A DNA stretch of 64,000 bases from an uncultured Thermodesulfobacteriota bacterium (GTDB lineage Bacteria; Desulfobacterota; DSWW01): contig CAYLMK010000004.1 in NCBI GenBank assembly GCA_964384945.1, positions 264,109-328,108 on the forward strand. The letters are read 5' to 3'. The notes under the pieces are model-generated. The model made no database searches and had not been told where the DNA came from. It worked only from the letters and a program-made list of their open reading frames with translations. Below are positions 4,066 to 59,992 of the stretch, piece by piece. The position numbers were made by a program, and so were the translations under genes. Every line of letters starts with the position of its first letter. Within the stretch, counting starts at the first letter, position 1.

Positions 4066-7000
4066 TCATGGGTTGCGGCCCTCTCGTGTTCCGCGGCCTT
4101 CTTCCGCATCGCCGGGACGGGCGGCGAAGGGCTCGAACAGGACGCGGGCAAGCCCGGGGTCGTCTTCGGCATGGTGGATGGCGGCCTCGACTTCCTCTGC
4201 CCGGGCGGTTCCCCAGTAGCAGTGCGGCGCGGCCAGGGGGGGGCGATCCGCAGGGTCGGCATTGAAAAGCTGGATGCCCTCGTTCCCGAAAATCCGGTTG
4301 TACTCGAAGATCATCGCTCCGTTCAGATAGACGCCTCCGCTGCCGGCAGGCGTGCCCGCCCTGTTGCGGCTCACCGTGTTCCCGCGGAACACCTCGTTCT
4401 TGATGCTCATCCCCCAGAAGTTCAGGAACACTCCGCCTCCGTGGTCGCCGCCGCAGCGGTTGTCCAGAATCCGGTTCTTCTCGAGCGAGCTGTTCGTTTC
4501 GGCGTAGACGCCGCCTCCCTCCGAAGAGCTGTTCCGGACAATTTCATTGTCCTGGATCAGGGCAAAGGTCGCAAACAGGCCGCCTCCCTTTCCCCGGGCC
4601 TCGTTGGCGAGAATGCGGTTGCCGACCATGGCGGACCGGGAGAGCCACACTCCTCCGCCGTCGCCGCCCGACCGGTTGCCCTCGATCCGGTTCCCGGACA
4701 GGTTCACCGCCGTGTTCGACCGGTAGCCGTAACCGAAAACGCCCCCTCCATCCTCGCCGGCCTCGTTCCGGAGGATCTCGTTGTTCAGGATGTAGATGAG
4801 CTGGCTCCCGTACGCGTAGATGCCCCCGCCGTTCGACGGGCTTCGATTCTCGACGATCCGGTTGTGCTCGATCCGCGCGGCCGCATCCCGGATCGAGATG
4901 CCGCTGCCTCGGTTCTTCCGGAGGACGCAGTTCGCAACCCGCGACGTTGCCCCCTCGATGAGCACCCCCATGCCGTGTTCGATGATAGAGTGCTCGAGGA
5001 GAACCGGCGCCGAGCCGGTCTCCGCCTCGCCGGGGGTTTCCGCCTCCCCCTGCGCCTGTCCATCGAAGAACAGGTGGCCCCAGGGCGACTCCGGATCCCC
5101 GGTGAAAAGGACCGGCCTCGCCGGCTCCCCGCGGGCGGCCCAGGCGCCGCGCACGCGGAAGTTCGCACCGCGCGCGATCTCCATCCTCGTGCCAGGAAGA
5201 AGCTCGACCTTCACGCCGCTCGGCACGAACACGTTTCCGGTCACCGTGTAGGTCGCGCCCCCGGACTGCCCGAAAACCGTGTCCTCTCGCAAAGGCCCCT
5301 CGACAATGTTTGGGGCCGCAGGCGGGGTACAGAAGCGCGTGGCCGCAGACCAGTCGGTCCAGTTCCCGTCCGTCCCCTGGAAGGCGACGCGCCAGGCGTA
5401 CTCCCTGCCGGGCCGCAGGACGCCCTCGGGCAGCGCAAGCGAGTCGTTCCCTCCCACAGGACCGCTGTCGAAAAGAGGCGTGGAGAAATCCACGGGGATC
5501 TCGCTGATCACCCAGCGGGCCCCGGCCCGCGATTCCTCCGCCATGTCGGCAACCGCCTGAAGCAGAAGCACGGCCTCCGCTGCAGGGTCGCATCGGTCGG
5601 GCCGGACCGCGCGAATTCCCCGTGGGGCTGTTGCGGCCTGCTCGCTTCCGGAGCCTCCGACCGGAACCGGCAGCGGCCGGGAGAGGGCGCTCTCCACGAT
5701 CTCTCCTTTCGCCTCCTCCCGGTAGGCGGACAGGCAGAACAGGGAGGCCTCGGGGGACGGCCGGGCGAGCCGGACCGAACGTTCTCGGCCGTCCAGGGCC
5801 TGTCCGGTCGCCCGGGGAGGCCCGCCTTCTCCAAACCCGTAGAGACGAAACCCGCTCACCGTCACGTCCGGCGGGTACGTCCAGCGAAGGACCCACTCCT
5901 GACCCTCCGCCTGAACGGTCAGAAAGTCCGGAGGGGGAGGAGGCGCCTCGGGAATCCAGCGTTCCCGCAGTTCGTGCCAGTCGACCAGGCCCCGTTCGGC
6001 GTCGTCGAGCCAGTCGTAGATACGCGAGATCACGACCTCCCGGTCTCGGGTCCCCCAGTAGTTCTCCCCCGCGTCCAGGTCCGGGGCCAGCCTGTGGGTC
6101 TGCACGCGCAGGGCATAGCCCAGGCTGGCCACAATGTTGTTCCGCCTGAGTTCAGGCCCGCCGGAAACCACGATGGCCTCCCCGGGCTCCTCCCCCTTCG
6201 ATCCGTTGCCGTAGAAGGTGTTCTCCTCCACCCGGCCGTCGGCGTAATAGAAGAGCCCCCCTCCCAGGAAAGGAGACGCCGTGTTGTACGCCAGGGAGTT
6301 CCCGCGGATGAGGCTCCCCTCCGAGTAGATCCCGCCCCCGCGGCCTGCCTGGTTCGACTCGATCCGGTTCTTCTCGACCCTGCCGCCCAGGGCGAAGAGC
6401 CCTCCTCCGGAATCCTCCGCCACATTGTCTGCGATCAGGTTCCCTGCCACCTCGCACCGGAACGCAACGAGTCCGCCCCCGTATCGATCACTCCGGTTCC
6501 GCCAGATTCGGTTGTTCAGGATGGACACCCTGCCCTTGTCGTATGCATAGGCATAGATCCCTCCGCCGCCGTCGCGGCCCCCGCTGGAGATATTGTGATG
6601 GACGTCGTTGCCCTCGACGACCACCTCCCGGTCCGAGTAGACGACCATGCCGCCGCCGTTCCCCGAGGTATCCTCGAGCTCGGTCGAGTTGCCGTAGATC
6701 AAGTTCCCCGCAACCCTTCCCCCGGAAAACTCCAGGCTGATCGGCGTATCGACGTTGTCGCGAAAGATCGAGGACTCGATCTGGATTTCCGTGTCCCTCG
6801 CCTTGATCCCGCGCCCTCCCTCGACGATGCAGTGCCGAAAGAGGTCGGGCTGAAGCCTGCCGTCCTCTCCCGCCTTGCCGCCGAGGCAGTCGATCTTGTC
6901 CCAGGGTTCCTTCTGCAAGGGGCGGAAGGCGATCGGACGCTCCCGGCTTCCCCGGGCGACGATGCGCCCCTGGCAGTGAATGCTCACATCCGGTCCCAAT

Positions 7001-7260
7001 CGCACCTCGACGCCCGGCTCGATCGTGAGGGTGGCCTCGGGCACGATCAGGAAAGACTCCGTGATCCGATAGGGGCTCTTGCGCTGCTTCCAGACCGTGT
7101 CCCTGTCCATGGTCTTCACGCCCAGATCCGGGGGATGGAGCAGGAGCGAGATCTTCTCGCAGGATGCGCTGAGGGCGGCCAGCAGGACCGCCGCGGCCAG
7201 GGCCCCCCGCTTCCTCCTCTTGGGGGGCCCTCCCGCCCCAACCCGGCCAGGCTTTCCCAT
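4066..7260 (-). CDS. Giant secreted lipoprotein with two right-handed parallel beta-helix (PbH1/NosD-like) domains plus Ig/FN3-like spacer, 1064 aa
   Basis: RBS GGAGG 10 nt upstream of the ATG at 7260. Signal peptide MGKPGRVGAGGPPKRRKRGALAAAVLLAALSASC contains a lipobox-like SASC. There are dozens of G-rich beta-helix rungs (GGGIYAYA, GGGLFA, NRIxxN) and two YWGT motifs (ENYWGT, HCYWGT), as in NosD/disaggregatase-like proteins. Confidence 0.8.
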   Translation of the reverse strand: MGKPGRVGAGGPPKRRKRGALAAAVLLAALSASCEKISLLLHPPDLGVKTMDRDTVWKQRKSPYRITESFLIVPEATLTIEPGVEVRLGPDVSIHCQGRIVARGSRERPIAFRPLQKEPWDKIDCLGGKAGEDGRLQPDLFRHCIVEGGRGIKARDTEIQIESSIFRDNVDTPISLEFSGGRVAGNLIYGNSTELEDTSGNGGGMVVYSDREVVVEGNDVHHNISSGGRDGGGGIYAYAYDKGRVSILNNRIWRNRSDRYGGGLVAFRCEVAGNLIADNVAEDSGGGLFALGGRVEKNRIESNQAGRGGGIYSEGSLIRGNSLAYNTASPFLGGGLFYYADGRVEENTFYGNGSKGEEPGEAIVVSGGPELRRNNIVASLGYALRVQTHRLAPDLDAGENYWGTRDREVVISRIYDWLDDAERGLVDWHELRERWIPEAPPPPPDFLTVQAEGQEWVLRWTYPPDVTVSGFRLYGFGEGGPPRATGQALDGRERSVRLARPSPEASLFCLSAYREEAKGEIVESALSRPLPVPVGGSGSEQAATAPRGIRAVRPDRCDPAAEAVLLLQAVADMAEESRAGARWVISEIPVDFSTPLFDSGPVGGNDSLALPEGVLRPGREYAWRVAFQGTDGNWTDWSAATRFCTPPAAPNIVEGPLREDTVFGQSGGATYTVTGNVFVPSGVKVELLPGTRMEIARGANFRVRGAWAARGEPARPVLFTGDPESPWGHLFFDGQAQGEAETPGEAETGSAPVLLEHSIIEHGMGVLIEGATSRVANCVLRKNRGSGISIRDAAARIEHNRIVENRSPSNGGGIYAYGSQLIYILNNEILRNEAGEDGGGVFGYGYRSNTAVNLSGNRIEGNRSGGDGGGVWLSRSAMVGNRILANEARGKGGGLFATFALIQDNEIVRNSSSEGGGVYAETNSSLEKNRILDNRCGGDHGGGVFLNFWGMSIKNEVFRGNTVSRNRAGTPAGSGGVYLNGAMIFEYNRIFGNEGIQLFNADPADRPPLAAPHCYWGTARAEEVEAAIHHAEDDPGLARVLFEPFAARPGDAEEGRGTREGRNP

Positions 7261-7356
7261 GGTATTCTCGCCTCCTCGCAAACCAGGTCCCAGGTGAAAG
7301 GGAGAAGGGCAAGGCGTCAAAGCGCAACGCAATCGACGGCCATCTGACGCCGACCT

Positions 7357-9594
7357 CTATTCGTATTCGGTCCAGTCGACCTCCGCCCCCGGCCTGACCT
7401 GCTCGATCGCCCTGTCCTCGGGCATCTCCGGAACCTTGTCCATGAACATCAGGAACAGGGTCGCATACTCGATCCACATCTCCGGATCCGGCATCCGGGC
7501 GGCACCGTCCGGCGTGTAATACACGTAAGGCATCTTCGTGCCCCGACCTGCGTAGCGGTCCGGGTTGCGCAAGAAGTTCTTGATCCAATCGTACCGCAGG
7601 CGGCCCTTGGTGAGCATCAGATTGATGGACAGATCCTCCAGCTTCACGCCCTCGGGAAGGGCGCCGTCAAAAGAGACCGGGTGGCACTGCATGCACTTGT
7701 CGGTCTTCACCCGGTATTCCCCCATCTCCAGGACCTCGGGCTCGTAGTCGTCCCGGACCGGCAGCGAGACGTAGGGGACCCGGACGGTTTCCTGGACCTC
7801 GGGATCCAGGAGCAGACGAAAGCAGGCGATGAGCGTCTCCCGTTCCTGATAGCCCAAGCCGAACTCCGGCATCCGGATCTTCAGCCACGGTCGCAGCTCC
7901 ACGGGCTTGCTCAGGTACTGGAAGAACCACTGGGGCTGCACCCGCTCCGCCTCGGCGATCAACCGGGGAGGGACCATGGATTTGAGTCCCGTGAAGCGGT
8001 CGATGCGGGGCTTGACGTCCTCTTCGAGCTGATGGCACCCGCCGCAGTTGTAATGGCTCAACATCCAGTCGCCCTTCGCAAGGGTCGATTCGTCCGGGCC
8101 AAGCTTCCGGAGATAGGATTCCGAAACGGCGTAGTCCGCGTTGTGAAGATAGTAGACCGTGAGCGACTCGATCTCGCTGTCTTCGAGCCGGTGGTCCGGC
8201 ATCTTCAGCGGCATGTCCTCGCTCGTGTAGATGTCCGGTTTGCGGATCTTGTGATAGAGCCAATCCCACTTGGTGCGGGGCACATCGGACGATCCGAAGG
8301 GAAGCTCGTCCAGCCGCTTCCCGGCCACATCTCCCACCCCCACACCGGGCAGGGGCAGCTTCTCCATGTCCCGGACGACGTGGCATCCGTAACAGCCCAT
8401 GAGCTGGACCAGCCGCTTTCCCTCCCCTGGGTCGCCCCCTTCCGGAAGATCGGCCGGCGCCGGCCCGAGGAGTTCTTCGATCTCCCCGGGTCGCAGGGAC
8501 TCGAGGTAACCGGCCAGGTCCCTTCGTTCCTCTTCGGTAAGCATGAGCCGGGGCATGGCCGTCTGGGGGTTCCACTCGGCCGGCCCTTCAAGCCAGGTGG
8601 CGACCCAGGGGCCGGAGAGCTTCAGGCCCGCTTCGAAGAGGTTCGGAACCCGATCCGTCAGGCAGGCCTCGTTCCGATCGTCGCTGTGGCAGCCCACGCA
8701 CCCCTTCTCCGTGAAGAGGCCCTTTCCGTTCCGCTGAGATGCGCGGTCGCTTCGATAGGCGACCAGCGGCTTGGGCAAGGTCCGCTGTCCCATCAGATAG
8801 GCGACGATGTGGAGAATCTCCTCCTCCTGGAGGCGGAAGGTGGGCATCCGGTTCCTGGGGCGGACGGAGGCGGGGTCCTTGATCCACCGATAGAGCCAGG
8901 CAGGCCGGGAGACCTTCTCGCCGATCCCCTCGAAAGGCGTGGACATCCGGGGAAGATCCCTTGTCATGCGGGCCTCGTGGCAGCCGTAGCATCCGTGCTC
9001 CAGGAACAGGATCCGGCCTTGCTCGGCCTTCTCGGCCCCCCGCAGGCGGTGCGGGCTTTCGTGGCACCCGAGGCAGAGCCCCTGCACGAACCTCGACGGA
9101 ACGCGCGGCAGCGGCCAGTTCTGCTCGTAGCCGTGCGCCTTCTCCGCGGTCAAGCCGACCCCCTGGCCGTGATGGCACAGGGTACAGCCGAAGCGGCCGG
9201 GCTTGTGGTCGGCCAGAATCTCGGGGGGGTGATACCGCAGGGGGTTCGCCGCGTCCCGGAACAGCGGTTCCTCCAGGGCCAGATGGCACGTCCGGCACAG
9301 ATCGCGGACCCCCGCGTCGGGCAGAAAGATCTGCTCGATCCGGGGTCCGGCCCCGTCACGGGCCTTCTCGAGCAGCCGGGACCATTTCTTCAGGGCCTCC
9401 TCGTCCCCCTCCTCGGTCGCGACCCGGAGGTTGCGCTCCACCGCCTCCCTGAACGTTCCCCTGTAGTCTCTCTGGAAGCCCTTCCACGCCTGCCTGCCCT
9501 CGGAACGAAACACCACGAGAGACACGGCGAGGCAGGCTGCCGCCAGCGGGACAAACAACATTCGCGATCTGGTTCCTGCCCGAATCGTTGCCAT
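7357..9594 (-). CDS. Octaheme c-type cytochrome, membrane-anchored (8 CxxCH motifs)
   Basis: Heme-binding motifs: CRTCH, CTLCHH, CLGCH, CYGCH, CVGCH, CYGCH, CGGCH, CMQCH. N-terminal hydrophobic anchor. Located 15 nt downstream of the cytochrome b gene. Confidence 0.85.
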   Translation of the reverse strand: MATIRAGTRSRMLFVPLAAACLAVSLVVFRSEGRQAWKGFQRDYRGTFREAVERNLRVATEEGDEEALKKWSRLLEKARDGAGPRIEQIFLPDAGVRDLCRTCHLALEEPLFRDAANPLRYHPPEILADHKPGRFGCTLCHHGQGVGLTAEKAHGYEQNWPLPRVPSRFVQGLCLGCHESPHRLRGAEKAEQGRILFLEHGCYGCHEARMTRDLPRMSTPFEGIGEKVSRPAWLYRWIKDPASVRPRNRMPTFRLQEEEILHIVAYLMGQRTLPKPLVAYRSDRASQRNGKGLFTEKGCVGCHSDDRNEACLTDRVPNLFEAGLKLSGPWVATWLEGPAEWNPQTAMPRLMLTEEERRDLAGYLESLRPGEIEELLGPAPADLPEGGDPGEGKRLVQLMGCYGCHVVRDMEKLPLPGVGVGDVAGKRLDELPFGSSDVPRTKWDWLYHKIRKPDIYTSEDMPLKMPDHRLEDSEIESLTVYYLHNADYAVSESYLRKLGPDESTLAKGDWMLSHYNCGGCHQLEEDVKPRIDRFTGLKSMVPPRLIAEAERVQPQWFFQYLSKPVELRPWLKIRMPEFGLGYQERETLIACFRLLLDPEVQETVRVPYVSLPVRDDYEPEVLEMGEYRVKTDKCMQCHPVSFDGALPEGVKLEDLSINLMLTKGRLRYDWIKNFLRNPDRYAGRGTKMPYVYYTPDGAARMPDPEMWIEYATLFLMFMDKVPEMPEDRAIEQVRPGAEVDWTEYE

Positions 9595-9609
9595 CGAACG
9601 CGCATGCCC

Positions 9610-10410
9610 CTAAATCGAGAAGTAAGGCGTCGTCAGGATGTACTTCACATGGAAGAAGATCCGCAGGATGATCTTGCCCACCACGCCGAACATCAGGAGC
9701 ACGAAGGTCCACGCGACCACGTGCTTGACGACGCCCATCTTCCGAAAGAGCCGCCGGTTCGCCAAGGCCGGCAGCACGAGACCCAGGGCAAAATAGGCCA
9801 CCAGCAGTGCGAGGCCGAACCCCATCGGGAGACTCGTCAGTTCCTGTTCGGCCGTCTTGGGCACGGCCCAGTCCTCCCAGGGCCAGTAGAACTGCCAATT
9901 CGGGCCGCGAAGAAACTGGCCGATGAAGATCAGAACGAACCACATGAGGTATCCGAACAGGAAGAGGGGCACCACGAGGGGCCGCTCGCGGAGGCCGTAC
10001 TTGCCCACGCCCTTGGGGTTCGGATCGAGGTAGGGAAGAAGCGCGAGCCCGAGGATGATGAGCAGCGGCGCGCCTACGCCGGCGATCCAGGGGTCGAAAT
10101 AGACCAGCAAATCCTGAAGGCCCACGAAGTACCAGGGCGCCTTGGCCGGGTTCTCGGTCCAGTTCGGGTCCGCGACGGCCTTGAGCGGGGCGTCGACCTT
10201 GTACGACCAGACGATCAGGACCAGCGTGGCCGCCAGAACGGCGAGGAGCTCCTTGAAGGCGAGGTCCGGGAAGGCGAAAACCTCCTCACTCCGCCCCGCA
10301 TCTTCGCTTGCGTTCTTCTGTCCCATCCGTTTTTCCGATTCAATCGCCGACAACTGAGCGTCCCCCGGCTGTTGGCTTTTGGCTCTGAGCCCGTACCCCC
10401 TCCCCACCAT
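9610..10410 (-). CDS. Cytochrome b C-terminal half (subunit IV/PetD-like) of a split cytochrome b
   Basis: PWYF motif (APWYFVGLQDLL), equivalent to PEWY of PetD. Three transmembrane helices. The start is ambiguous: TTG at 10452 (12 nt after the upstream stop), ATG at 10410, or ATG at 10326. None has a good SD sequence. The middle ATG is reported. Confidence 0.7.
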   Translation of the reverse strand: MVGRGYGLRAKSQQPGDAQLSAIESEKRMGQKNASEDAGRSEEVFAFPDLAFKELLAVLAATLVLIVWSYKVDAPLKAVADPNWTENPAKAPWYFVGLQDLLVYFDPWIAGVGAPLLIILGLALLPYLDPNPKGVGKYGLRERPLVVPLFLFGYLMWFVLIFIGQFLRGPNWQFYWPWEDWAVPKTAEQELTSLPMGFGLALLVAYFALGLVLPALANRRLFRKMGVVKHVVAWTFVLLMFGVVGKIILRIFFHVKYILTTPYFSI

Positions 10411-10464
10411 TCTGCGGGAGGAGGCGGCGGGGAGCTGACTGCTGATAGCCAATGGCTTTTCTTT

Positions 10465-11220
10465 TCACAACGCCCTCGACATGCCTCCGTCCTTTCGCAC
10501 CCTCCAGAAGTGGACGAACATCAGCAGGCCTGCCACGAACGGAAGGAGCACACAGTGAAGCACGTAGAAGCGAAGAAGGGCGCTGGCCCCCACGTCGGAG
10601 TCTCCCAGCAGAAGGAAACGCATATCGTTGTCCGGGTGGATGCCGAACCACTCGTGGAAAGGGCCGTCCGACCCGAGAAAGGGCGTGGCGGCGGCCATCT
10701 TCGTCCCCACCGTGATGGCCCACAGCGCGATCTGATCCCAGGGGAGAAGATAGCCGGTGAAGCTCAACAAGAGCGTAACCACCAGCAGCATGACGCCCAC
10801 CACCCAGTTGAACTCCCGCGGGGGCTTGTACGAGCCGGTCAGAAAGACCCGCAGCATATGCAGCATGACGAGCAAAACCATCGCATGGCCCGCCCACCGG
10901 TGCATGTTCCTCAAGAACATGCCGAACCGAACCGTGTGCTCGAGAAGCTTCATGTCCAGATAGGCGTACTCGGGCACGGGACGGTAATAGAACATGAGGA
11001 GGATGCCGGTCACTGTCTCCGCGAGGAACATGAAGAAGGTCAGCCCCCCGAGACAAAAGGAGTAGCGCAGCCGGAGGGTCTCCCGGGGAAGGGTGACCGG
11101 ATGAAGGTGCAGAATCGAGTTGGAGACGATCGCAAGGGCCCGGTTCCGCGGCGTGTCCTCGAAGCGGTGCCGGAAGATGGATCGCCAAAGCTGCGACTCT
11201 GTGATTCTTTTCCACGCCAT
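10465..11220 (-). CDS. Cytochrome b/b6 N-terminal half (heme b-binding, quinol-interacting)
   Basis: [32 protein letters not shown] is the hallmark cytochrome b N-terminal segment. Conserved His residues in helices B and D. Internal ATG chosen, 11 nt after the upstream stop. Confidence 0.85.
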
Positions 11221-11231
11221 AACCGCACCGC

Positions 11232-11936
11232 TCAGGCTGTCAGCAGGGTCTGGAGGTAGGCGTACTCCCCGGCGAGGAAGCGGCAGGTGAACTTGACCAG
11301 TTCCCGGTAGAAGAGGATCGCCTCCCGGCACGCATCCTCGGGGAGCCGCTCCACGATCTGCTCCAGCCTCTCCAGGGCCTTGTTCATCCAGAAAAGCGGG
11401 TGCCTCTCCAGGAAGTCCCGCTCGGCACGGCGGTACCCGGCCGGGTCCGAGCCCGTCTGCATGGCCTGGACCTCCTTGAAGGTCAGGTAGTGAAGGAACT
11501 CCATCTCCAGGCAGACGTGATCCGGACGTTCGTCCTGGGCGCCCTCCGCATAGCTCAGCCCGAAGTGGTTGTAAAACAGGATAAGCTCCTTGAGCACGAC
11601 CTTCCGGTCCTCTCTCCAGGCGCCCTCCACCAGCGGGCAAGGCGGGCCGCCCGGCCCGGATTCGAAGAGACGGATGAACTCCACCTCGATCTGCTCATCC
11701 TCGAGCCGGGACGGAAGACGCAGGCCCTTCCGCTCGCCCTCCTCCAGAGAAAACGGATAGGGAAGCCGGGCCAGCAGGATTTCAAGGGCCTCTGCGAGCT
11801 CGCCCTGCCTTGCCTGCCGGCGGAAGGAGGCATCCGGATACCGGTAGGCCTCGGCCAGGATCGCATACAGCCGGCTCCGGTTTCCCGAGCGTTTCTCCGT
11901 GTCGGTCTCGAGCGGTCTGCTCCGGATGTCTTCCAT
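11232..11936 (-). CDS. TorD/NarJ-family redox-enzyme maturation chaperone (delta subunit, EbdD/NarJ-like)
   Basis: [22 protein letters not shown] is the TorD-family core. The ATG at 11936 lies 5 nt after the beta-subunit stop. The remaining upstream part of the ORF is low-complexity. Confidence 0.75.
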
Positions 11937-11941
11937 GCTGT

Positions 11942-13084
11942 CTACGCCTGGGACGGTTTTGGAGGGAGCCTTTGCAACAGGGCCGGGTCCTTGGTGAAGG
12001 GCTCGAACATCTTGCCCCACTCCCTGGCAATCAGGATGTCCATCAGCTCCGACTTGCCCCCGCCGCGAACCTTCTTCATCTCGCTCTGCATGGTCTCCAG
12101 GGCCCTGTCCACCTCGGGCCCGAAGAGATAACGCAGGTAGGCCGTCGGAATGCGCGGCTTGGTGGTGTCGATCTTCCCGGTCTCGTCGAGCCTCGGCGGA
12201 GCCAGAGGAGGAACGTAAAACACATTCGGTTCGGTTCCGTATTCCGGGTGGAGGGGCAGCGCGACCTTCCAAACCTTCACGAGTTTGTGGATCGGCCCTT
12301 TTTCATCGTCCAGGAAGCCAAGGAACCGTACGCGGCCCGTGCACTGCCTGGCGCAGGCGGTTGCCACCTCCTGCTCGAGACGCGGGTAACAGAAGATGCA
12401 CTTCATGCTCGTCTTCGTGACGAAGTTGAAATAGATCACCTTGTACGGGCAGGCCTCCAGGCAGAACCGGTAGCCCTTGCACCGGTCCTGGTCGATCACG
12501 ACCGCGCCGTCCTCTTCCCGCTTGTAGATCGCGTTGCGCGGACAGGCATCGATGCAGGCCGCGTATGTGCAGTGGTTGCAGATGCGGGGAAGGTAGAAGT
12601 AGAAGGCGTTCGGGTATTTCCCGCCTCCCTGGTCCTCATCCCAGTTCATGGACCAGTCCGGCTCCGTTCCGTCCGGGTTGCGGGCCTGCAGGTGCTTCTC
12701 TCCCGCCTGGGAGGAGAATACCTCCTCATAGTTGAATTTCCAGAGATCCCCGAAGTCCTTCCGCGTGGGCAGCTCCCCGCGCACCGGGTCCCTGACCTTC
12801 CCGCCGAAGAGCACCTGGTACCCGCCGCCCTTGCGCTCCCAGTCCTTGGGAGACCCTTTCCCGGGCTGTGTGTTCACTTTGTTCCACCACATGTATTCCC
12901 GACCCTCAAGCTGGGTCCAGAGGGACTTGCACGCCATCGAGCAGAGCTGGCATCCGATGCATTTGTTCAGGTCCATCACCATGGCAACCTGGCGCTTGCA
13001 CTCGCGCAGCGTCTCCTTGGCGGCCTGAAACTCCAGGGCGAGTTCCTTTTCCCGTTCGGTCAGCTGTTTCTCGTCAACCGGCAT
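11942..13084 (-). CDS. Type II DMSO-reductase-family molybdoenzyme beta subunit (NarH/EbdB-like, 4 Fe-S clusters)
   Basis: RBS AGGAGAAG upstream of the ATG at 13084. Motifs: VMDLNKCIGCQLCSMACK, EYMWWNKV, CNHCTYAACIDACP, CKGYRFCLEACP, CIFCYPRLEQEVATACARQC. Confidence 0.9.
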   Translation of the reverse strand: MPVDEKQLTEREKELALEFQAAKETLRECKRQVAMVMDLNKCIGCQLCSMACKSLWTQLEGREYMWWNKVNTQPGKGSPKDWERKGGGYQVLFGGKVRDPVRGELPTRKDFGDLWKFNYEEVFSSQAGEKHLQARNPDGTEPDWSMNWDEDQGGGKYPNAFYFYLPRICNHCTYAACIDACPRNAIYKREEDGAVVIDQDRCKGYRFCLEACPYKVIYFNFVTKTSMKCIFCYPRLEQEVATACARQCTGRVRFLGFLDDEKGPIHKLVKVWKVALPLHPEYGTEPNVFYVPPLAPPRLDETGKIDTTKPRIPTAYLRYLFGPEVDRALETMQSEMKKVRGGGKSELMDILIAREWGKMFEPFTKDPALLQRLPPKPSQA

Positions 13085-13146
13085 GGTTCTTCTCCTGTCC
13101 CAGGCTGCGCGACCTTCCCGGAGGTCCCGCTTCGGGTTTGAATGCC

Positions 13147-13830
13147 TCAAACTTCCACCACGAGCCCCATCCACTCCTTGCTGAACGCCTTGACCCCTCC
13201 CCGTTCTCCGTTGGCGCCCTCCCAGGCGGCAAAACCGACCGTGAGGTCCTTCGCGCCCGGTTGGAGATTCACGGCCTCTTCGGCGACCGTGAGCGGGCGT
13301 CCGATGATCACGCACCACTTGCCCTGCTTCCAGTCCGAACAGGAGACGAGCGACGACTGGTCGGTGTAGAGGGAGGTCGCGAGCCCCCGGGCCACCTGGT
13401 TCTTGGGCTTCTCCTTGAAATCGGGCCTCCAGTACCAGCTGTTCGTGGGGTAGTCGTGGGAGCCCATCTCCTTGATCTGGGTCTTCTCCGGGTCCTTGAA
13501 GGGGAGCAGCACGGCGACGCCGTCCGGGAAGGTGCCGATGTCGCCGATCTCGAGGTTGGGCGCCTGGCTGTTCCATTCGATGTGGAAGAAGATCTCCTTC
13601 CCGTTGTGCACCGCCTTCACCTCGATCTCCTTGACCGCGCCGATCTTGGTCTCGTCAAAGGTTGCCTTGATATACGGCGAGGGCTGGTTGGCCAGGGGTG
13701 TCGCGCCCATCTCGATCCGATGTCCGTTCATGCCGGCCCAAACCGGAGCCTTGCAGTTCAGAAGCTCCTGGTGGGAAGCGGACACCTTCCTGACGATCAC
13801 GCTTTCCAACTTCTTTGCTTCCTCCGGCAT
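13147..13830 (-). CDS. Putative gamma subunit (EbdC/DdhC-like EB_dh heme-b domain protein), 227 aa, no obvious signal peptide
   Basis: Strong RBS AAGGAGG 8 nt upstream of the ATG at 13830 (MPEEAKK). Resembles ethylbenzene dehydrogenase gamma from memory (APVWAG, AVHNGKEIFFHIEW, NSWYWRPD, GANGERGGVKAFS). The ORF-track GTG start at 13914 is not favoured. Confidence 0.65.
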   Translation of the reverse strand: MPEEAKKLESVIVRKVSASHQELLNCKAPVWAGMNGHRIEMGATPLANQPSPYIKATFDETKIGAVKEIEVKAVHNGKEIFFHIEWNSQAPNLEIGDIGTFPDGVAVLLPFKDPEKTQIKEMGSHDYPTNSWYWRPDFKEKPKNQVARGLATSLYTDQSSLVSCSDWKQGKWCVIIGRPLTVAEEAVNLQPGAKDLTVGFAAWEGANGERGGVKAFSKEWMGLVVEV

Positions 13831-13935
13831 TTCCGATGCCTCCTTTCGTGAGTCTATGATCTGTAAGCTGTTAGCCATTAGCTGTTGGCCCACCCCGCAC
13901 CCTGGTGCCGTCACTCTTTCGGAGACCGGAGGCCG

Positions 13936-14026
13936 GGCCTGACCCGTGACCCCTGTCCTTTCGCCCTTCGCCTTAACTTGATAATTGCGACCTGATCCCT
14001 GACCCCTGGGCCCTGATCCCTCAACC
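13936..14026. repeat. Two blocks of tandem heptamer repeats (CCTGAYC on plus strand, GGGRTCA on minus strand) between the alpha and gamma genes
   Basis: cctgacccgtgacccctgtcc and cctgatccctgacccctgggccctgatccctcaacc. The same heptamer family occurs at 27401-27423 and 59256-59285. Confidence 0.6.
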
Positions 14027-14029
14027 TTG

Positions 14030-16942
14030 CTACGTCTTCTTCACCTCCACGGCAATCGCGCGGTCGACCGGCTGCAGACACCAGTTCCACCGGTAGTAGT
14101 TCAGGTGACCGTATCCGGCTGCCAGATCCAGCCACTTGATCATCCCCGGGATGGCCGTGTCATAGCTCTTCCACTCCTTGAACATGAAGGGCTCCCAGGC
14201 ATGGTAGATGATTACCTGTCCGGGAGAGGTCCCCTTGCCGGGCCGGGCCGCCGGGCTCACCTTCACATGGATCCGGAACTCGTCGAAGTCGTTCCAGACC
14301 CTCACCAGATCCCCGTCCCGGATTCCCCGCTTTTCGGCATCCTCGGGATTCATGAACATGAACGGCCGCCCCTGATGGGTCCGCATGAGCTGCTCGTCCG
14401 TGATCCAGATGGAATGCACGCTCCAGCGCAGATGCCCGCTGGTCAGGGTCAGGGGATAGTTCCCTCCCATCTTCGGGTTGGGCTTGTGCACGGGCATCTG
14501 TTCGCCGGCCTCGAGGTGCCACGGGTGATCCAGGTAGAATTGCAGCCGCCGGTTGTAGGTGGGATAGGGGAGCTTCTTCGAGCCCGTGTGCCAGGTAAGC
14601 GGCACGATCGGCTCGTCGGGCTTGATGTCTGTGGCCAGGTGCATGGTGATCGGATCGAAGATCGACAGCCCGACAAAACGAACGATGCCCTCTTCGCGCA
14701 TCTTTGCCAGATTGGTTCCTTGCGGAAGGTTGCCCATCATCACGCTCGTCTCCAGGGCGTCTTCCATGATCTCTTCCAGGTTGCTGCAGCCCATGGCCTG
14801 CTTCTCTCGCAGGTTCTCGAGATCGACCTTTCGGCCGCTTCGAAGCTGGAACTCGGTCTTGCCCCTCTTCCGGGCCTCCTGTTCGATCTTGCCGGCGAGC
14901 ATCACGCAGATCTCCCACTCGTTCTTGGCCTCGCCGGGAGGCTCGACCGCCTTGTCCGTCAGCGTCAGCCAGGGAACATGGGGCGTGGGAAAGCGGGTGT
15001 CGAGCTTTTCGTAGAAGCCGGCGCAGGGCAACACGTAGTCGGAGTAGAGAACCGTCGTGCTCCAGCGGGTCTCGAAACCGAAGACGAGCTTGTACTTCTT
15101 CCAGAGGCTGGGCAGTATGTTCTTGTTCCAGCCCCGGTTTTTCCGCGCAGGGCTGGTGCCGATGTAGAAATAGACCGTGGGCTCCTGGTCCGCATAGGGC
15201 AGGGCAAAGCCCTCCCACCACTTTTTTTCCAGGGCCTCCTTCATGTACTCCGGGAATTCGCGCTTCATGGTGGGGCAGTGCCATTCCCTCCTGTCCCAGG
15301 CATCCTTGTACCCGGAATGGAAATAGTAGAGGAAGGCCGGCGGAACCATCGTGTATTCCGTACGGTTTCGCTCCCGCTCGAGCAGCACCGAGAGCATCTC
15401 GTCCGTCCGGGTCGGGTCTTCCGCCTTGAACCGGTTCACGATCCGCTTCTCCTGGGCCAGCCGGAGAGTCGCGCCCAGGGGTCCCCTCTTGGACTTGATG
15501 GCCTGGAAGAGGGCCCCCTCGAACAGGGATTCGTTCCAGCCCCGGATCCCGCTTCCCTTCCTTCCGTAACTGCCGGTCAGGGCCAGAAGAAGGCACATGG
15601 CCCGCTCGATCAGATCTCCATGATAGTACTTGCACGCGTTCCATCCCACCAGCACCTGGATGTGAGGCTTGGCCTTGGCGCACTTCTCGGCAAGGCGGCG
15701 GATCGTGTCCGGGTGGGTTGCACAGTGCGGGGAGGCCTTCTCGGGCGTGTAGTGCCGGTCGAGCTGCTCCTTCAGGAGCGCGAAGGACGGCCGCACCTCG
15801 GCCTGCCCGCCGTCAAGCAGCTTCACGATGAAGGTCCCCTCCAGGGCCGGGTCCACGGGCAGCTTGAGCGTGTCCAGCGGGGCCTTTACGGGGCCCCCTT
15901 TGGCCGCATCCCAAAAATAGAACTGGTCGTCCCGTCCGCCCTGCTCCAGATCCGCAACCCGGAGAAACCGGCCCGTGTCCGTTCGGACCAGCAGGGGAAG
16001 ATCGGTCTGCTCTTTGATGAAGGGGATGTCGATCCAGCCTTTCTCGATCAGCACCTGGCAGACGGCGAGCCCGAGGGCCGCGTCCCCGCCCGGCTCCACG
16101 GGCACCCACTCGTCGGCGTGCATCGCGCTCGGCGAGTAGTCCGGCGCGATCGTCACCACCTCGGCGCCGTTGTACCGCGAAGAGGCGATGAAGTGATAGG
16201 AGGGGATCCGGGTGTAGACCGGGTTCATGTGCCAGATGAGCAGCAGCTTTCCAAAGAACCAGCCGTCCACGGAGTCCATGAACTGAAACTTGCCCACGCT
16301 CTGGTAGATCCCGCGGTTGAAGTCCCCGATCGTGGAGTCCAGATCCAGGGAGGTGCCGCCGAGAAAGTTGAGCAGCCGCGAGGCAGGGATCAGATTCAGG
16401 TATCCTCCGTTTCCCGGGCCTGTCTCGTTGATGATCGACTCGGGGCCCTGGGACTCCAGGCCGTCGAGGATCCCGGAGGCGATCTCGGAGAGGCACTCGT
16501 CCCAGCTCAGCCTCTTCCACTTCCCGCTGCCGCGCTCGCCCACCCGCTTCATCGGGTACTTGAGCCGGTCCGGGTTGTACATCATGTGGCTGTAGAAGGC
16601 CCCCTTCTGGCACCCCCGGGGGTTGAAGTCCGGGCCGGTCGGGTCCACCACCGGGTACTTGGCCGCCTGCTCCTCCCGGAAGACCACCCCGTCCTTTGTG
16701 TAGACGCGCCAGAGGCAGTTTCCCGGGTAACAGTCCACCAGGTGCGTCCCGTACGTCACCTTGTCCCAGGTCCATTCCTTCCTGTGCAGGTCTTCCCACC
16801 TGGCGTAGTCCCACTCCTGGACGACCTTCTCCGTGGCGCAAGCATTGCCCCCCAGGAAACCCAAGGATCGCAAGGAGAGCATCAGCGCGGAAGCGCCCGA
16901 AACCTGAAGAAACTGTCTCCGGTCAAGCTTGATCCCCTCCAT
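14030..16942 (-). CDS. Type II DMSO-reductase-family molybdopterin oxidoreductase alpha subunit, Tat-exported (NarG/EbdA/NxrA-like)
   Basis: RBS AGGAGG upstream of the ATG at 16942. Twin-arginine signal MEGIKLDRRQFLQVSGASALM. FS0 motif HLVDCYPGNCLWRVY...PRGCQKG (H-x3-C-x3-C-xn-C). RLKYPMKR as in NarG. Its ATG overlaps the ferredoxin stop (TGATG). Confidence 0.9.
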   Translation of the reverse strand: MEGIKLDRRQFLQVSGASALMLSLRSLGFLGGNACATEKVVQEWDYARWEDLHRKEWTWDKVTYGTHLVDCYPGNCLWRVYTKDGVVFREEQAAKYPVVDPTGPDFNPRGCQKGAFYSHMMYNPDRLKYPMKRVGERGSGKWKRLSWDECLSEIASGILDGLESQGPESIINETGPGNGGYLNLIPASRLLNFLGGTSLDLDSTIGDFNRGIYQSVGKFQFMDSVDGWFFGKLLLIWHMNPVYTRIPSYHFIASSRYNGAEVVTIAPDYSPSAMHADEWVPVEPGGDAALGLAVCQVLIEKGWIDIPFIKEQTDLPLLVRTDTGRFLRVADLEQGGRDDQFYFWDAAKGGPVKAPLDTLKLPVDPALEGTFIVKLLDGGQAEVRPSFALLKEQLDRHYTPEKASPHCATHPDTIRRLAEKCAKAKPHIQVLVGWNACKYYHGDLIERAMCLLLALTGSYGRKGSGIRGWNESLFEGALFQAIKSKRGPLGATLRLAQEKRIVNRFKAEDPTRTDEMLSVLLERERNRTEYTMVPPAFLYYFHSGYKDAWDRREWHCPTMKREFPEYMKEALEKKWWEGFALPYADQEPTVYFYIGTSPARKNRGWNKNILPSLWKKYKLVFGFETRWSTTVLYSDYVLPCAGFYEKLDTRFPTPHVPWLTLTDKAVEPPGEAKNEWEICVMLAGKIEQEARKRGKTEFQLRSGRKVDLENLREKQAMGCSNLEEIMEDALETSVMMGNLPQGTNLAKMREEGIVRFVGLSIFDPITMHLATDIKPDEPIVPLTWHTGSKKLPYPTYNRRLQFYLDHPWHLEAGEQMPVHKPNPKMGGNYPLTLTSGHLRWSVHSIWITDEQLMRTHQGRPFMFMNPEDAEKRGIRDGDLVRVWNDFDEFRIHVKVSPAARPGKGTSPGQVIIYHAWEPFMFKEWKSYDTAIPGMIKWLDLAAGYGHLNYYRWNWCLQPVDRAIAVEVKKT

Positions 16943-17226
16943 CAAGGCCCTCCTTTCCCGGTGGTTGCGGCCCGAATCGGCCCCTCGGCCCTCACCAGGC
17001 GAATGGCGTCCCAGGGGCACCCGAAGATGCGGGATCCCCTGGGGCCCCGCGCCACACAAGCGCCGCAGCCCGTGCAGAGGGCCGGATCCGCCTCCACCCT
17101 CTTGAATGGAAAATGATCCGCGTCCTCGATCAGCCGAAGGGCTCCTTGGGGGCAGTAGATCCGGCAGACGGGCCTGCCCCCGCAGCCCGTGCATCCCTCC
17201 GAGACGAAAGCTACCCGCGTCTGCAT
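16942..17226 (-). CDS. 2x[4Fe-4S] ferredoxin
   Basis: CTGCGGRPVCRIYCP and CTGCGACV...GCPWDAI are two CxxCxxC...CP cluster motifs. Its stop overlaps the alpha-subunit start. Confidence 0.8.
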   Translation of the reverse strand: MQTRVAFVSEGCTGCGGRPVCRIYCPQGALRLIEDADHFPFKRVEADPALCTGCGACVARGPRGSRIFGCPWDAIRLVRAEGPIRAATTGKGGP

Positions 17227-17249
17227 CCCAGGCCCCTGTCCTGCGCCGC

Positions 17250-17840
17250 CTACGTCAGCTCGATGTAGGCCTTCTTCTGTTCGAATTCGCGGGCCGTCAG
17301 CACGACCCGTGTGTCCACCAGGATTCTCTCTTCACTGTCCAGGCTGATCTTCAGGCGGTCCAGCGGACGGGGCGCCGGGCCCGCGAACTCCGTTCCGTCG
17401 GAATGAAACTCGCTGCCGTGGCAGGGACACTTGAAGATTCGCATTCCGGGAAACCAGTTGACCGTGCAGCCGAGATGGGTGCATCGGGCGAACAGCGCAT
17501 AAATCCTTCGGGCCTCGCGCACGACGAAGAAGCGGTGCGCCTGTTTGAAGCGGCTGTCGATGGAGATCACCCCATGGGCATCGGCAGGCTCGGTGGAGAG
17601 GAAATCCTCGATCCGGCCGATCTCGAAGACGCTGGGAGGATGGAAGACCACGGAAGGGAAGAAGAACCGGACGGTCTGGTAGGTCCCGGCGCCGATTCCG
17701 ACGGCAAGGGCGCCCCATCCCGCGACCGAAATCCCCTTCTGAAGAAATTCCCTGCGGGAGGACGCCCCGGCCTTTCCCGTCGGTTCGGGTGCGGGTTCCG
17801 TAACCATCTCGGGCTGGAGGAAAGAGGACCCTTTGCTCAT
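17250..17840 (-). CDS. Rieske [2Fe-2S] iron-sulfur protein, Tat-exported
   Basis: RBS AGGAG upstream of the ATG at 17840. Tat motif SRREFLQKG. Rieske boxes CTHLGC and CPCHGS. Its ATG overlaps the MerR stop (ATGA). Confidence 0.85.
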   Translation of the reverse strand: MSKGSSFLQPEMVTEPAPEPTGKAGASSRREFLQKGISVAGWGALAVGIGAGTYQTVRFFFPSVVFHPPSVFEIGRIEDFLSTEPADAHGVISIDSRFKQAHRFFVVREARRIYALFARCTHLGCTVNWFPGMRIFKCPCHGSEFHSDGTEFAGPAPRPLDRLKISLDSEERILVDTRVVLTAREFEQKKAYIELT

Positions 17841-18550
17841 CCCAGCTCCTGGGTGATCCTGCGCACCATCCGCCGGTGGAGGATCGGCAGGATCTTGTTC
17901 AGGGCATGGATCGCATCCTGGGCGAGCCTCTGGATCTGGGCCGGGCTCATCCCCTTGCGCACGATTCGTTTCGTGAAGATCTCGATCTCTTTGCGTGCCA
18001 GGAATTCCATGAGATCGAGGTGGATCTGGAGATGCTCCACCTGGAAATCGAGTTCTTCGTTCAGGCCGATCTCCTTGATCTCGCTCAGGATCTCCACAAT
18101 CTGCACACACTCGGGGTCGAACCGGCCTTCCGCGTCCGTCTCGATCATGCCCATCGACTCCAGGGCCTGGATCTGCTTCGGTTCCACCCCTGTGCGTTCG
18201 CAAAGCTCCTCCCGGCTCATCGGCTGGGCGTCGTCCCCCAGAAGCGAGTCCTCGAAAAGGGGCCTGTCCATCTCCCGGAGAAGCTGCCGCTGCTCCCCGT
18301 TGAGGGCCGGCCCCTGGGCCCCCACGATCATCTTGATGACGCTCAGAGGAAGGAAGCGCTTCTTCTGGAGGTCCTTGATCGCCCGGATGCGCTCGATGTA
18401 GCTCTCATCGTAGTAGGCCATGTTCCTGTGGGTCTTCAAGGGCTTGGGGAGGATCCCTTTCTGTACGTAGTAGCGGATCGTACCCCCGCTGACCCCGGTG
18501 GCGTGGGACAGTTGCTGCATCTTGAGCAGCCTTTTGTTCTTGGCGGGCAT
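17837..18550 (-). CDS. MerR-family transcriptional regulator (first gene of the operon)
   Basis: N-terminal HTH LSHATGVSGGTIRYYVQKGILP. The start may be M1 (18550) or M11 (18520). Its stop overlaps the Rieske start. Confidence 0.8.
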   Translation of the reverse strand: MPAKNKRLLKMQQLSHATGVSGGTIRYYVQKGILPKPLKTHRNMAYYDESYIERIRAIKDLQKKRFLPLSVIKMIVGAQGPALNGEQRQLLREMDRPLFEDSLLGDDAQPMSREELCERTGVEPKQIQALESMGMIETDAEGRFDPECVQIVEILSEIKEIGLNEELDFQVEHLQIHLDLMEFLARKEIEIFTKRIVRKGMSPAQIQRLAQDAIHALNKILPILHRRMVRRITQELG

Positions 18551-20708: not shown

Positions 20709-21473
20709 CTATTCCTCGGGCGAAAGGAACTTCGCCTTCAGGAACTCCCGGTTGAGTCTCGCGATGTTGGCGATCGAGATTTCCTTCGGACAGGCCGCCT
20801 CGCACTCGGCCTCGTTCGAGCAGTTGCCGAACCCGAGTTCGCCCATCTTCTTCGTCATCGCCTGAACGCGCCTGGCGGCCTCCGGCCTTCCCTGGGGAAG
20901 CAGGGCAAGGTGTGAGACCTTGGCCGCCACGAAGAGCATCGCCGAAGCGTTCGGACAGGCCGCCACGCAGGCCCCACACCCGATGCACGCGGCGGCGTCC
21001 ATCGCCCTTTCCGCGACATCCTTCGGGATGGGGATCGCGTTGCCGTCCGGGGCCCCGCCCGTGTTCACCGAGATGTAGCCGCCGGTCTGAATGATCGCAT
21101 CGAAGGCGCTTCGGTCGACCACCAGGTCCTTGACCACCTTGAAGGCCCTGGACCGCCACGGCTCGATGACGATCGTGTCCCCGTTCGAGAAGTGCCTCAT
21201 GTGAAGCTGGCACAGGGTGGTTCCCTTCTCGGGTCCGTGGGCACGACCGTTGACCACCGCGCCGCACATCCCGCAGATGCCTTCCCTGCAATCGTGATCG
21301 AAGGCAATCGGCTCTTTCCCGTCGAGGGTGAGCCGCTCGTTGATCACATCGAGCATCTCGAGAAAGGACATGTCCGTGGAGATGCCCTCGGCGGGGTAGG
21401 TCTCGAGCCTGCCCTTCTTGTGCGGGCCCTCCTGCCGCCAGACCTTCAGGGTGAGGTCGATGGTCTTGCTCAC
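20709..21473 (-). CDS. sdhB: Succinate dehydrogenase/fumarate reductase iron-sulfur subunit
   Basis: 2Fe-2S motifs CREGICGMC. 4Fe-4S and 3Fe-4S motifs [12 protein letters not shown] and [12 protein letters not shown]. Its start overlaps the sdhA stop. Confidence 0.9.
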
Positions 21474-27400: not shown

Positions 27401-27423
27401 GGGGTCGGGGTCAAGGGGTCAGG
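27401..27423. repeat. Tandem GGGGTCR heptamer repeat (G-quadruplex-like) between the convergent GRE and FadL gene ends
   Basis: ggggtcggggtcaaggggtcagg. Same family as the repeats at 13936-14026 and 59256-59285. Confidence 0.6.
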
Positions 27424-30577: not shown

Positions 30578-30608
30578 GGCCGCCCCCTGCCGCCATAAGG
30601 CAGCAGAA

Positions 30609-30637
30609 AATCTATAGGAAATCCCGGTACGCGTCAA
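30609..30637 (-). promoter_or_regulatory. Sigma70-like promoter (TTGACG-17 nt-TAGATT) for the acyl-CoA ligase/FadL pair
   Basis: Read on the minus strand: cttgTTGACGcgtaccgggatttccTAGATTttctg. Confidence 0.35.
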
Positions 30638-30652
30638 CAAGCCGGCGGGTGC

Positions 30653-37049: not shown

Positions 37050-37547
37050 TCAAACCGGGGGCCTTCCGAATCGGACAACGCGGGACGGGTCCGCGAGCCG
37101 ATCCAGAAGCTCCCTCACCGTTGCTCCGATAAGGGGATGCACGAATTCGGGGGCGACTTCGCACAACGGTTCGAGAACGAAACGCCGGACCGCAACGCCG
37201 GGATGCGGAACCGTCAGTTCGGCGTCGGAAAAGACCTCCGAGCCGAAGAAAAGCAGATCGAGGTCCAATGTTCTAGGTCCCCACCGATCTTTTCGAACCC
37301 TGCCGGCCAGGGCTTCCGCCTCCTGGAGAAGATGGAAAAAATCCTTCAATCCGCGTGATGTCTCCACCTGGACCACACAATTGAGGAACCACCCCTGGTC
37401 CGTCCTGCCGAAGGGCTCGGTTTCGTAAAGGGGCGAGCACGCCCGGATCACATTCCCTTGCCGGGCTCCAATCCAACGAATCGCATCGCGGATCAGGGCC
37501 TCTCGGTCGCCGAGGTTGGAACCGGCTCCCACGGTGGCCAGGTGCAT
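37050..37547 (-). CDS. folK: 2-amino-4-hydroxy-6-hydroxymethyldihydropteridine pyrophosphokinase (HPPK)
   Basis: Motifs GSNLGDR, LYETEP and WGPRTLDLDLL. Confidence 0.85.
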   Translation of the reverse strand: MHLATVGAGSNLGDREALIRDAIRWIGARQGNVIRACSPLYETEPFGRTDQGWFLNCVVQVETSRGLKDFFHLLQEAEALAGRVRKDRWGPRTLDLDLLFFGSEVFSDAELTVPHPGVAVRRFVLEPLCEVAPEFVHPLIGATVRELLDRLADPSRVVRFGRPPV

Positions 37548-37765
37548 GTGCCGACAACCTTCCCAGCGGCGCCTCCACTCCCAGCTATTGGCTAATCGCC
37601 GTCAGCCGTTAGCCATGAACCCTCCCCGCCCGGCTCCCCTCTTGTGCCGATCCTGATGAGGGGTGATGGATGGGTGCTGACAGCTAACAGCGAATGGCTG
37701 ATAGCCGGGAGCCGATAGGCACACGCTTGCTTGCATCAACCAGACGCCTGTCTTCGGCAGCGAAA

Positions 37766-59949: not shown

Positions 59950-59992
59950 GGGGGCAGCCTGTGCTGGGGTCGTTCTCCTCCGGATGGGCCCC

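Follow-up and report, generated by a model that had tools for sequence, protein, structure and literature searches.

A haem-b gamma subunit without a signal peptide and a heptamer-filled spacer in an ethylbenzene-dehydrogenase-like gene cluster of an uncultured Thermodesulfobacteriota bacterium

Ethylbenzene dehydrogenase (EbDH), whose haem-b gamma subunit is EbdC, is a soluble periplasmic enzyme of alpha, beta and gamma subunits (PMC8840923). The EbDH-like clade extends to the sulfate-reducing Thermodesulfobacteriota through AhyABC of Desulfococcus (Desulfosudis) oleovorans Hxd3, a putative hydroxylase acting on the C2-methylene group of alkanes, whose function was proposed from proteomics and not biochemically (PMC3653055, PMC7803848). 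Subunits with the same EB_dh haem-b domain also include the NxrC proteins of Nitrospina and Nitrotoga, which carry N-terminal signal peptides and for which Sec export is predicted (PMC3578206, PMC6050957). Here, we describe a gamma-subunit gene of this family, and the spacer 5' of it, in a 64,000-nucleotide stretch of DNA (64 kb, hereafter the window) from an uncultured Thermodesulfobacteriota bacterium (contig CAYLMK010000004.1, positions 264,109 to 328,108, assembly GCA_964384945.1). The gene (13147-13830, minus strand) encodes a protein of 227 residues that, in contrast to NxrC, has no signal peptide, and it is separated from the alpha-subunit gene by a 199-nt spacer (13831-14029, minus strand) built from heptamer repeats as a lineage-specific expansion. 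An earlier reading of the sequence by itself (the sequence-only reading) had set the missing signal peptide against the premise that type II gamma subunits are normally Sec-exported, and had proposed RNA-level regulation or processing between alpha and gamma. Our comparisons make it very probable that this is an ordinary signal-less gamma subunit exported with alpha, and that the spacer is a recent, non-conserved pile-up of heptamers lying outside the conserved design of the enzyme.

Two described classes of intergenic heptamer provide the closest parallels for the spacer. G-rich heptamers, with the unit GGGAATC in Xanthomonas and GGGGA(C/T)T in Nostoc, form G-quadruplexes in vitro with four units preferred, lie mostly between co-oriented genes, differ in length among close relatives, occur at times as inverted pairs and have no known function (Rehm et al. 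2015, PMC4692102). The TAACTGA heptamers of Beggiatoaceae and cyanobacteria lie just 5' of start codons (MacGregor 2015, PMC4679880).

The identity of the gamma subunit is supported by profile, alignment and structural comparisons. Translation begins at an ATG (13830-13828, minus strand) placed 8 nt 3' of a Shine-Dalgarno sequence, AAAGGAGG (13839-13846, minus strand), and runs to a stop codon whose last base is 13147. The product matches Pfam EB_dh (PF09459) over profile positions 1-235 of 236 (110.6 bits against a cut-off of 33.3, E = 1.6e-31). It also matches TIGR03477 end to end (positions 2-203 of 206), at 136 bits, below the curated cut-off of 169.85, so that by this model it would be classed as a divergent member; the EbdC equivalog model is likewise matched from end to end, at 125 bits against a cut-off of 400. 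Among PDB sequences searched with phmmer, EbdC (2ivf_C) matches at E = 1.8e-28 and the Kuenenia enzyme (7b04_C) at E = 7e-15. Met122 (codon 13465-13467) aligns with EbdC M108 and Lys214 (codon 13189-13191) with K201, residues that Kloer et al. 2006 reportedly describe as the haem-b ligands of EbdC, and neither varies among 26 aligned homologues of 56-90% identity. The sequence-only reading had looked to a Met/Lys ligand pair as the mark of a gamma subunit; with both found, that identity is not refuted. An AlphaFold model built from the 26-homologue alignment (predicted local distance difference test, pLDDT, 83.4; predicted template-modelling score, pTM, 0.84) shows the EbdC-like beta-sandwich fold and has 2ivf_C as its top PDB match (E = 3.6e-18, template-modelling (TM) scores 0.83/0.88, root-mean-square deviation 2.4 Å, 29% identity), followed by the anammox NXR-C structure. 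On these comparisons, the product of the gene at 13830-13147 is predicted to be an ordinary haem-b gamma subunit, its parent enzyme being of the type II molybdenum kind, similar to ethylbenzene dehydrogenase, soluble and periplasmic. The start at ATG 13830 with its strong Shine-Dalgarno sequence, the 227-residue EB_dh product and the absence of a hydrophobic N-terminus, all as first read from the DNA, were borne out.

The last of these features raised the question of whether the 227-residue model is a truncation, a more upstream start supplying a signal peptide. The gamma reading frame is indeed open through the whole spacer, as such a start would require, but the spacer translation, RRRSKVEGSGPRGQGSGRNYQVKAKGERTGVTGQARPPVSERVTAPGCGVGQQLMANSLQIIDSRKEASE, is hydrophilic along its whole length. 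Taken over 10-residue stretches, the Kyte-Doolittle mean peaks at 0.81 when translation begins at ATG 13830 and at 0.90 across the full in-frame spacer translation, as compared with 2.83 for the signal-anchor of the cytochrome c encoded in the same cluster and 1.45 for the leader of alpha. The only in-frame start codons within the spacer are GTG 13914 and ATG 13878, both of which add hydrophilic residues only, and no in-frame ATG, GTG or TTG lies 5' of GTG 13914 within the spacer. Relatives point the same way: across the 26-homologue alignment the N-termini are short and polar (MPEE, MSNE, MEKI) and share the same start position, and in most of the 33 related genome loci that served as our comparison set (labelled L001 onward) an in-frame stop lies 1-10 codons 5' of the gamma ATG. 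An unrecognised upstream start, one of the options of the sequence-only reading, is refuted by these data, and the chance that the 227-residue model is truncated is in our estimate vanishingly small.

The absence of a signal peptide instead seems to be the normal state of the EbdC/Ahy-like branch. Nearly all homologues among the 120 listed are 213-238 residues long. When 1.84 billion cluster representatives were searched exhaustively with HMMER, 872 relatives were retrieved, and N-termini were assessed in the best 150, of which 110 were full length. No N-terminal extension was present in 75 of these 110, and a hydrophobic 10-mer scoring above 2.0 occurred in only 5 of the 75; extensions of at least 12 residues were found in 29 of the 110, belonged to the more distant hits and were strongly hydrophobic in 24 cases. 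Both the EbdC chain of 2IVF (214 residues) and the NCBI full-length EbdC model (214 positions) align with gamma from their residue 3-4; because chain and model are both of this length and leave no room for a leader, EbdC itself appears to lack one. The premise that type II gamma subunits are normally Sec-exported fails for this branch on both counts, that is, the 75 representatives without an extension and the length of EbdC.

How a signal-less gamma subunit would reach the periplasm is suggested by its partner. The alpha protein begins with a twin-arginine translocation (Tat) signal peptide, MEGIKLDRRQFLQVSGASALMLSLRSLGFLGGNACA (16835-16942, minus strand, read from the translation), in which a DRRQFLQ twin-arginine (RR) motif is followed by a hydrophobic stretch and an AxA site (ACA), cleavage being expected before TEK (MEGIKLDRRQFLQVSGASALMLSLRSLGFLGGNACA|TEK). 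The pattern [ST]RRxFL[KQ], the hydrophobic stretch and the AxA site are kept in 28 of 28 distinct alpha N-termini from relatives. Neither beta nor gamma has a hydrophobic N-terminus. In the assembly route we propose, gamma would take up haem b in the cytoplasm and then bind beta and alpha, the NarJ-type delta chaperone would retain the alpha signal until cofactors are inserted, and the folded alpha-beta-gamma complex would be exported by hitchhiking on its sole twin-arginine signal, that of alpha. Three-subunit hitchhiking through Tat has been demonstrated for Escherichia coli PaoABC (PMC4273604).

The competing reading holds that the enzyme, or at least gamma, is cytoplasmic and that the alpha leader is a vestigial, non-exporting Tat remnant of the NarG kind. 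NarG-type enzymes do retain a remnant Tat motif, and the lack of signals on beta and gamma would fit this reading as well. However, the alpha leader is complete in all three of its elements and is conserved throughout the relatives, the nearest enzymes to have been characterised are periplasmic (PMC8840923, PMC7411048), and the cluster encodes two periplasm-facing partners, the octahaem cytochrome c and a Rieske protein that bears an RR motif. A cytoplasmic location, which the sequence-only reading had left open, is very improbable on this evidence. Its other suggestion, that gamma hitchhikes with alpha, gains support from the DRRQFLQ signal, its conservation and the presence of a NarJ-type chaperone gene, and co-export of the assembled complex through Tat is the best supported and most economical reading, although we infer the export itself.

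Turning to the spacer, the two G-rich heptamer blocks noted at the outset are real. Array 1 (13986-14027, minus strand), composed of GGGATCA, GGGCCCA and GGGGTCA units, begins right after the alpha stop codon and holds a canonical four-tract G-quadruplex motif at 13997-14020. Array 2 (13938-13968, minus strand) passes from GGGGTCA and CGGGTCA units into AAGGGCG and AAAGGAC units. A third array, of TAACAGC type (13853-13887, minus strand; units CAACAGC, TAATGGC, TAACAGC, TTACAGA and TCATAGA), ends 22 nt 5' of the gamma ATG and includes ATGGCTAACAGC. The description of a repeat-filled leader was correct, its given length of 198 nt being one short of the 199 nt found.

Comparison with relatives indicates that this content is of limited phylogenetic reach. 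The alpha-gamma gap measures 25-66 nt in most of the 33 loci, in one of them the two genes overlap, and expansion is found only in the nearest relatives, among which the contents of the gap differ. In the window (199 nt), G-rich arrays 3' of the alpha stop are followed by the TAACAGC-type array; L001 (288 nt) has a G-rich array after the alpha stop together with its C-rich inverse; L004 and L006 (234 nt) have an unrelated 25-bp inverted repeat; L009 (191 nt) has neither array type; L007 (94 nt) has a G-rich array only; and L033 (76 nt) is without a heptamer array. The parts of the expanded spacers that can be aligned are limited to AAAGGAGGC, which is unchanged across the alignment of the window with L001-L004, and the start region. 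We therefore picture, as a working model, a spacer that in most of the clade measures about 25-66 nt and in this lineage would have been swollen by slippage-prone heptanucleotide repeats, the GGGGTCA type right after the alpha stop and the TAACAGC type 5' of the ribosome-binding site, both of which also occur in other spacers. With ribosome-binding site and start codon kept, gamma would be translated from its own site on a polycistronic mRNA, and whatever the repeats may do to mRNA stability or relative subunit yield would be generic to the repeat class and not an operon-specific switch.

The principal challenge to this model is that the spacer might be a functional cis-acting RNA element that sets the alpha:gamma ratio. 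The G-rich array, as a G-quadruplex or, given an inverted partner, as a hairpin, would shield the alpha segment against degradation in the 3'-5' direction, make transcription pause or attenuate, or break translational coupling, and the TAACAGC array would bind a post-transcriptional regulator ahead of the ribosome-binding site. Several observations favour such an element and weigh against the pile-up reading. In the window, L001 and L007 the G-rich arrays lie on the sense strand 2-12 nt 3' of the alpha stop, and each of the window's G-rich arrays occupies the 3' end of a gene, again in sense orientation. Two of the relatives' spacers are strongly structured: in L001 (7713-7950) the inverted G-rich and C-rich heptamer arrays form a stable hairpin (z = -4.2), and in L004 (7810-7920) a 25-bp perfect inverted repeat forms a very stable one (z = -6.2). 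The leader of folK, which holds the same repeat family, also folds well (z = -4.5). Among described repeats, the G-rich heptamers are similarly placed and are transcribed (PMC4692102), and the TAACTGA heptamers near start codons were proposed as regulator binding sites (PMC4679880). A selected RNA-level role in this sub-lineage is thus possible. The wider reading of an ordinary, co-exported subunit is open to two further points: the absence of a signal is judged from hydropathy, alignment and in-frame stops, and the leaderless state of EbdC from chain and model lengths and from what Kloer et al. 2006 reportedly described.

Against a cis-acting element stand the 25-66 nt spacers of most relatives, which are too short to contain one, the lack of any sequence or structure common to the expanded spacers, and the behaviour of the window spacer itself, which folds no better than shuffled sequence (z = -0.05); on this result a conserved structured RNA in the spacer was dropped as a candidate. 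The window shows no enrichment of G-quadruplex motifs (9 against 13.2 expected), so that the idea of a window-wide signal was also set aside, the orientation argument is based on 3-4 arrays only, and the published repeats have likewise yielded no function (PMC4692102). Searches for recognisable control signals gave the same picture. An Rfam scan of 13000-14800 at a permissive threshold yielded nothing in the spacer and one weak, sub-threshold nhaA-I match inside the alpha gene; a scan of 13000-14500 for sigma-70 promoters and intrinsic terminators found none; and a sigma-54 -24/-12 site sought by eye at CGGCACCAGGGTGC has a spacing one base short. A pattern combining the CGGCACCAGGGTGC site with a G-rich run had no match in the window, including the two leaders from which it was derived, and a metagenome scan with the conserved flank of ribosome-binding site and start codon retrieved two unrelated contigs only. 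With length, sequence and structure all unconserved, RNA-level regulation or processing between alpha and gamma is not supported, and we regard a cis-acting element as unlikely.

The pile-up reading also accords with the distribution of the two heptamer families elsewhere in the window. We counted an array wherever three tandem GGGGTCA-type units occurred with at most 4 mismatches, taking as the null 30 first-order Markov simulations of the window (dinucleotide frequencies). GGGGTCA-type arrays occupy 4 places in the 64-kb window against 0.1 expected, the chance expectation being 0-0.1 per heptamer family. Beyond the spacer, they lie at 27401-27421 (plus strand), 7 nt 3' of the stop codon of a glycyl-radical enzyme gene, and at 59250-59284 (minus strand), within the last codons of a phosphoribosyltransferase-like open reading frame (59233-60018). 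The four-tract pattern (G3+N1-7 four times) is matched at 13997-14020 and 59260-59284, and for these two four-tract G-rich arrays Tandem Repeats Finder gives a 7-nt period and copy numbers of 4.4 and 4.0.

TAACAGC-type repeats recur as an inverted pair, 37583-37616 (minus strand) and 37671-37705 (plus strand), in the 218-nt spacer 5' of folK (37050-37547), and as a weak array at 10368-10388 (minus strand) in a 138-nt gap 3' of the cytochrome b gene. The spacer between the aminotransferase gene and folK (37548-37765, minus strand) forms a long hairpin from its inverted arrays, and a G-rich tract adjoins it. In the 138-nt gap (10327-10464, minus strand), between the cytochrome b and ExtQ-like genes, the units are ATTGGCT, ATCAGCA and GTCAGCT, and further AGAGCCA, AAAGCCA and ACAGCCG; the equivalent gap in L004 holds a CCTTTCA/CCTTTGA array. 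Because this gap belongs to the same gene cluster, the alpha-gamma spacer is not, as had been stated, the only sizeable gap there. The recurrence of ATGGCTAACAGC upstream of folK holds, with its position revised: the second copy, with one mismatch, is at 37605-37616 and not at 37583-37600. Since repeats of the ATGGCTAACAGC type are dispersed among spacers of the window, the motif shared with the folK leader is not specific to the operon. A more extended homology between the gamma and folK leaders was considered on the basis of a suggestive 85-nt alignment and rejected: the BLAST match is marginal (E = 0.086), and only the heptamer family exceeds chance.

Further heptamer arrays were seen in related metagenome-assembled genomes (MAGs), at L001 2638-2666, L004 11459-11494, L010 9340-9368, L030 1096-2707 and L031 1203-9668, built from units such as CCTTTGC, CCTTTCA, AGGAGTC, AAGGTCG and TGAATGA. 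Judging by these arrays, heptamer microsatellites appear to be common in these lineages. One may go further and regard the two families in the window as a lineage-wide "punctuation" of polycistronic mRNAs in these Thermodesulfobacteriota, fast-changing by slippage, in which sense-strand G-rich arrays right after stop codons, folded as G-quadruplexes or, where an inverted partner is present, as hairpins, and TAACAGC arrays before ribosome-binding sites would set the stability and the translation yield of mRNA segments, here tuning alpha against gamma and beta; we consider this quite improbable.

Compared with the repeats of Rehm et al., the G-rich arrays have the same general build, units of 7 nt that each hold a G3-4 tract, some four of them in a row, and a place between co-oriented genes. 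The location on the coding strand no more than 50 bp from a stop codon applies to the arrays at alpha, at the glycyl-radical enzyme gene and at 59233-60018. Unit number and sequence differ among close relatives at the same spacer, and inverted pairs able to form hairpins occur (L001). They differ in their unit, GGG[GA]TCA, in their Thermodesulfobacteriota lineage and in scope, having been seen here in 64 kb, with the G-quadruplex predicted from its motif. The parallel between the TAACAGC arrays and the TAACTGA and cyanobacterial STRR repeats is looser. Both are tandem, A/T-containing heptamers in spacers, close 5' of starts, but TAACAGC and TAACTGA differ at 2 of 7 positions, and the arrays here, three or four in all, are both short and degenerate, leaving 22-35 nt between array and start codon instead of a few nt.

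The genes around gamma encode the remainder of the enzyme. Immediately 5', the alpha, or catalytic molybdopterin, subunit gene (14030-16942, minus strand) encodes 970 residues, a length shared by the genes called in L001 and L004, with the Pfam domains Molybdopterin and Molydop_binding (TIGR03479, 915 bits; EbdA, 810 bits). On the other side, after a gap of 62 nt, follows the beta subunit (11942-13084, minus strand; 380 residues, without a signal peptide), a four-cluster iron-sulfur protein that scores 505.5 bits against the 480.7-bit cut-off of TIGR03478. Next comes delta (11232-11936, minus strand), a NarJ/TorD-type assembly chaperone of 234 residues (PF02613, E = 3e-16), identical in length and position in L004. 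Downstream of delta lie the genes for cytochrome b (10465-11220, minus strand), an ExtQ-like membrane protein (9610-10326, minus strand) and the octahaem cytochrome c, which has a hydrophobic N-terminus (7357-9594, minus strand). Upstream of alpha are a small ferredoxin of 94 residues, the Rieske protein and a MerR regulator. The whole cluster, from MerR, Rieske protein and ferredoxin through alpha, gamma, beta and delta to cytochrome b, the ExtQ-like protein and octahaem cytochrome c (7357-18550, minus strand), is conserved in L001 and L004. Alpha precedes gamma in every related locus that reaches 5' of gamma, and beta comes next wherever the contig continues.

By profile scores, alpha, gamma and beta are a type II set of the dimethyl sulfoxide-reductase family, closest to ethylbenzene dehydrogenase. 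The scores against the equivalog models for EbdA (810 against a cut-off of 2000), EbdB (457 against 740) and EbdC all fall below their cut-offs, which marks the enzyme as EbDH-like and not as an orthologue of ethylbenzene dehydrogenase. It shares with EbDH the fold of gamma, the Met/Lys haem-b pair, the size of this subunit and, by chain length, the absence of an N-terminal extension, as well as its genetic company, an alpha with a Tat signal, a beta with iron-sulfur clusters and a delta of NarJ type. It differs in gene order, alpha-gamma-beta-delta here as opposed to ebdABCD, in the additional Rieske protein, cytochrome b and octahaem cytochrome c of its cluster, and in sequence, gamma being only 29% identical to EbdC in the structural alignment and well below the 400-bit equivalog cut-off. 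The MAG of Desulfosudis oleivorans in our comparison set (L010) has an alpha-gamma-beta locus, possibly the ahy locus, in which alpha is 75% and gamma 66% identical to the window proteins; a literature search for the locus tags Dole_0193-0196 found no mention of them. The nearest relatives of the window enzyme, at 77-90% gamma identity, form a subgroup of their own, distinct from AhyABC. Taken together, these comparisons place the enzyme in a clade present in Thermodesulfobacteriota MAGs, near the putative alkane hydroxylase AhyABC.

Several neighbouring genes were recorded in passing. Upstream of the cluster (20709-23383, minus strand) is a flavoprotein and iron-sulfur pair resembling succinate dehydrogenase/fumarate reductase, and downstream (4066-7332, minus strand) is a NosD/beta-helix protein of about 1090 residues; both are syntenic in L001 and L004. 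The glycyl-radical enzyme mentioned above (24893-27394, plus strand; 833 residues) was considered as an alkyl- or benzylsuccinate synthase and rejected in favour of the PFL2/dehydratase class, its score of 631 bits with TIGR01774 lying, like the others, below every equivalog cut-off. Genes for a FadL/TodX outer-membrane channel (27432-28787, minus strand) and an AMP-forming ligase (28784-30640, minus strand) adjoin it.

The known view of how the enzyme works is unchanged by these findings, whose consequences lie in annotation and in the biology of the spacer. In the EbdC/Ahy branch, the short start is the one to use when EB_dh gamma subunits are annotated, and the absence of a signal should not be equated with a truncated or cytoplasmic protein; for this branch, the Tat signal of alpha is the better guide to periplasmic localisation. 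With this spacer, the intergenic heptamer repeats, a class still poorly understood, gain one more lineage and further unit sequences that are new. Finally, the pairing of a Rieske/cytochrome b module with an EbDH-like enzyme may be relevant to the handling of high-potential electrons in these organisms, which are likely sulfate reducers.

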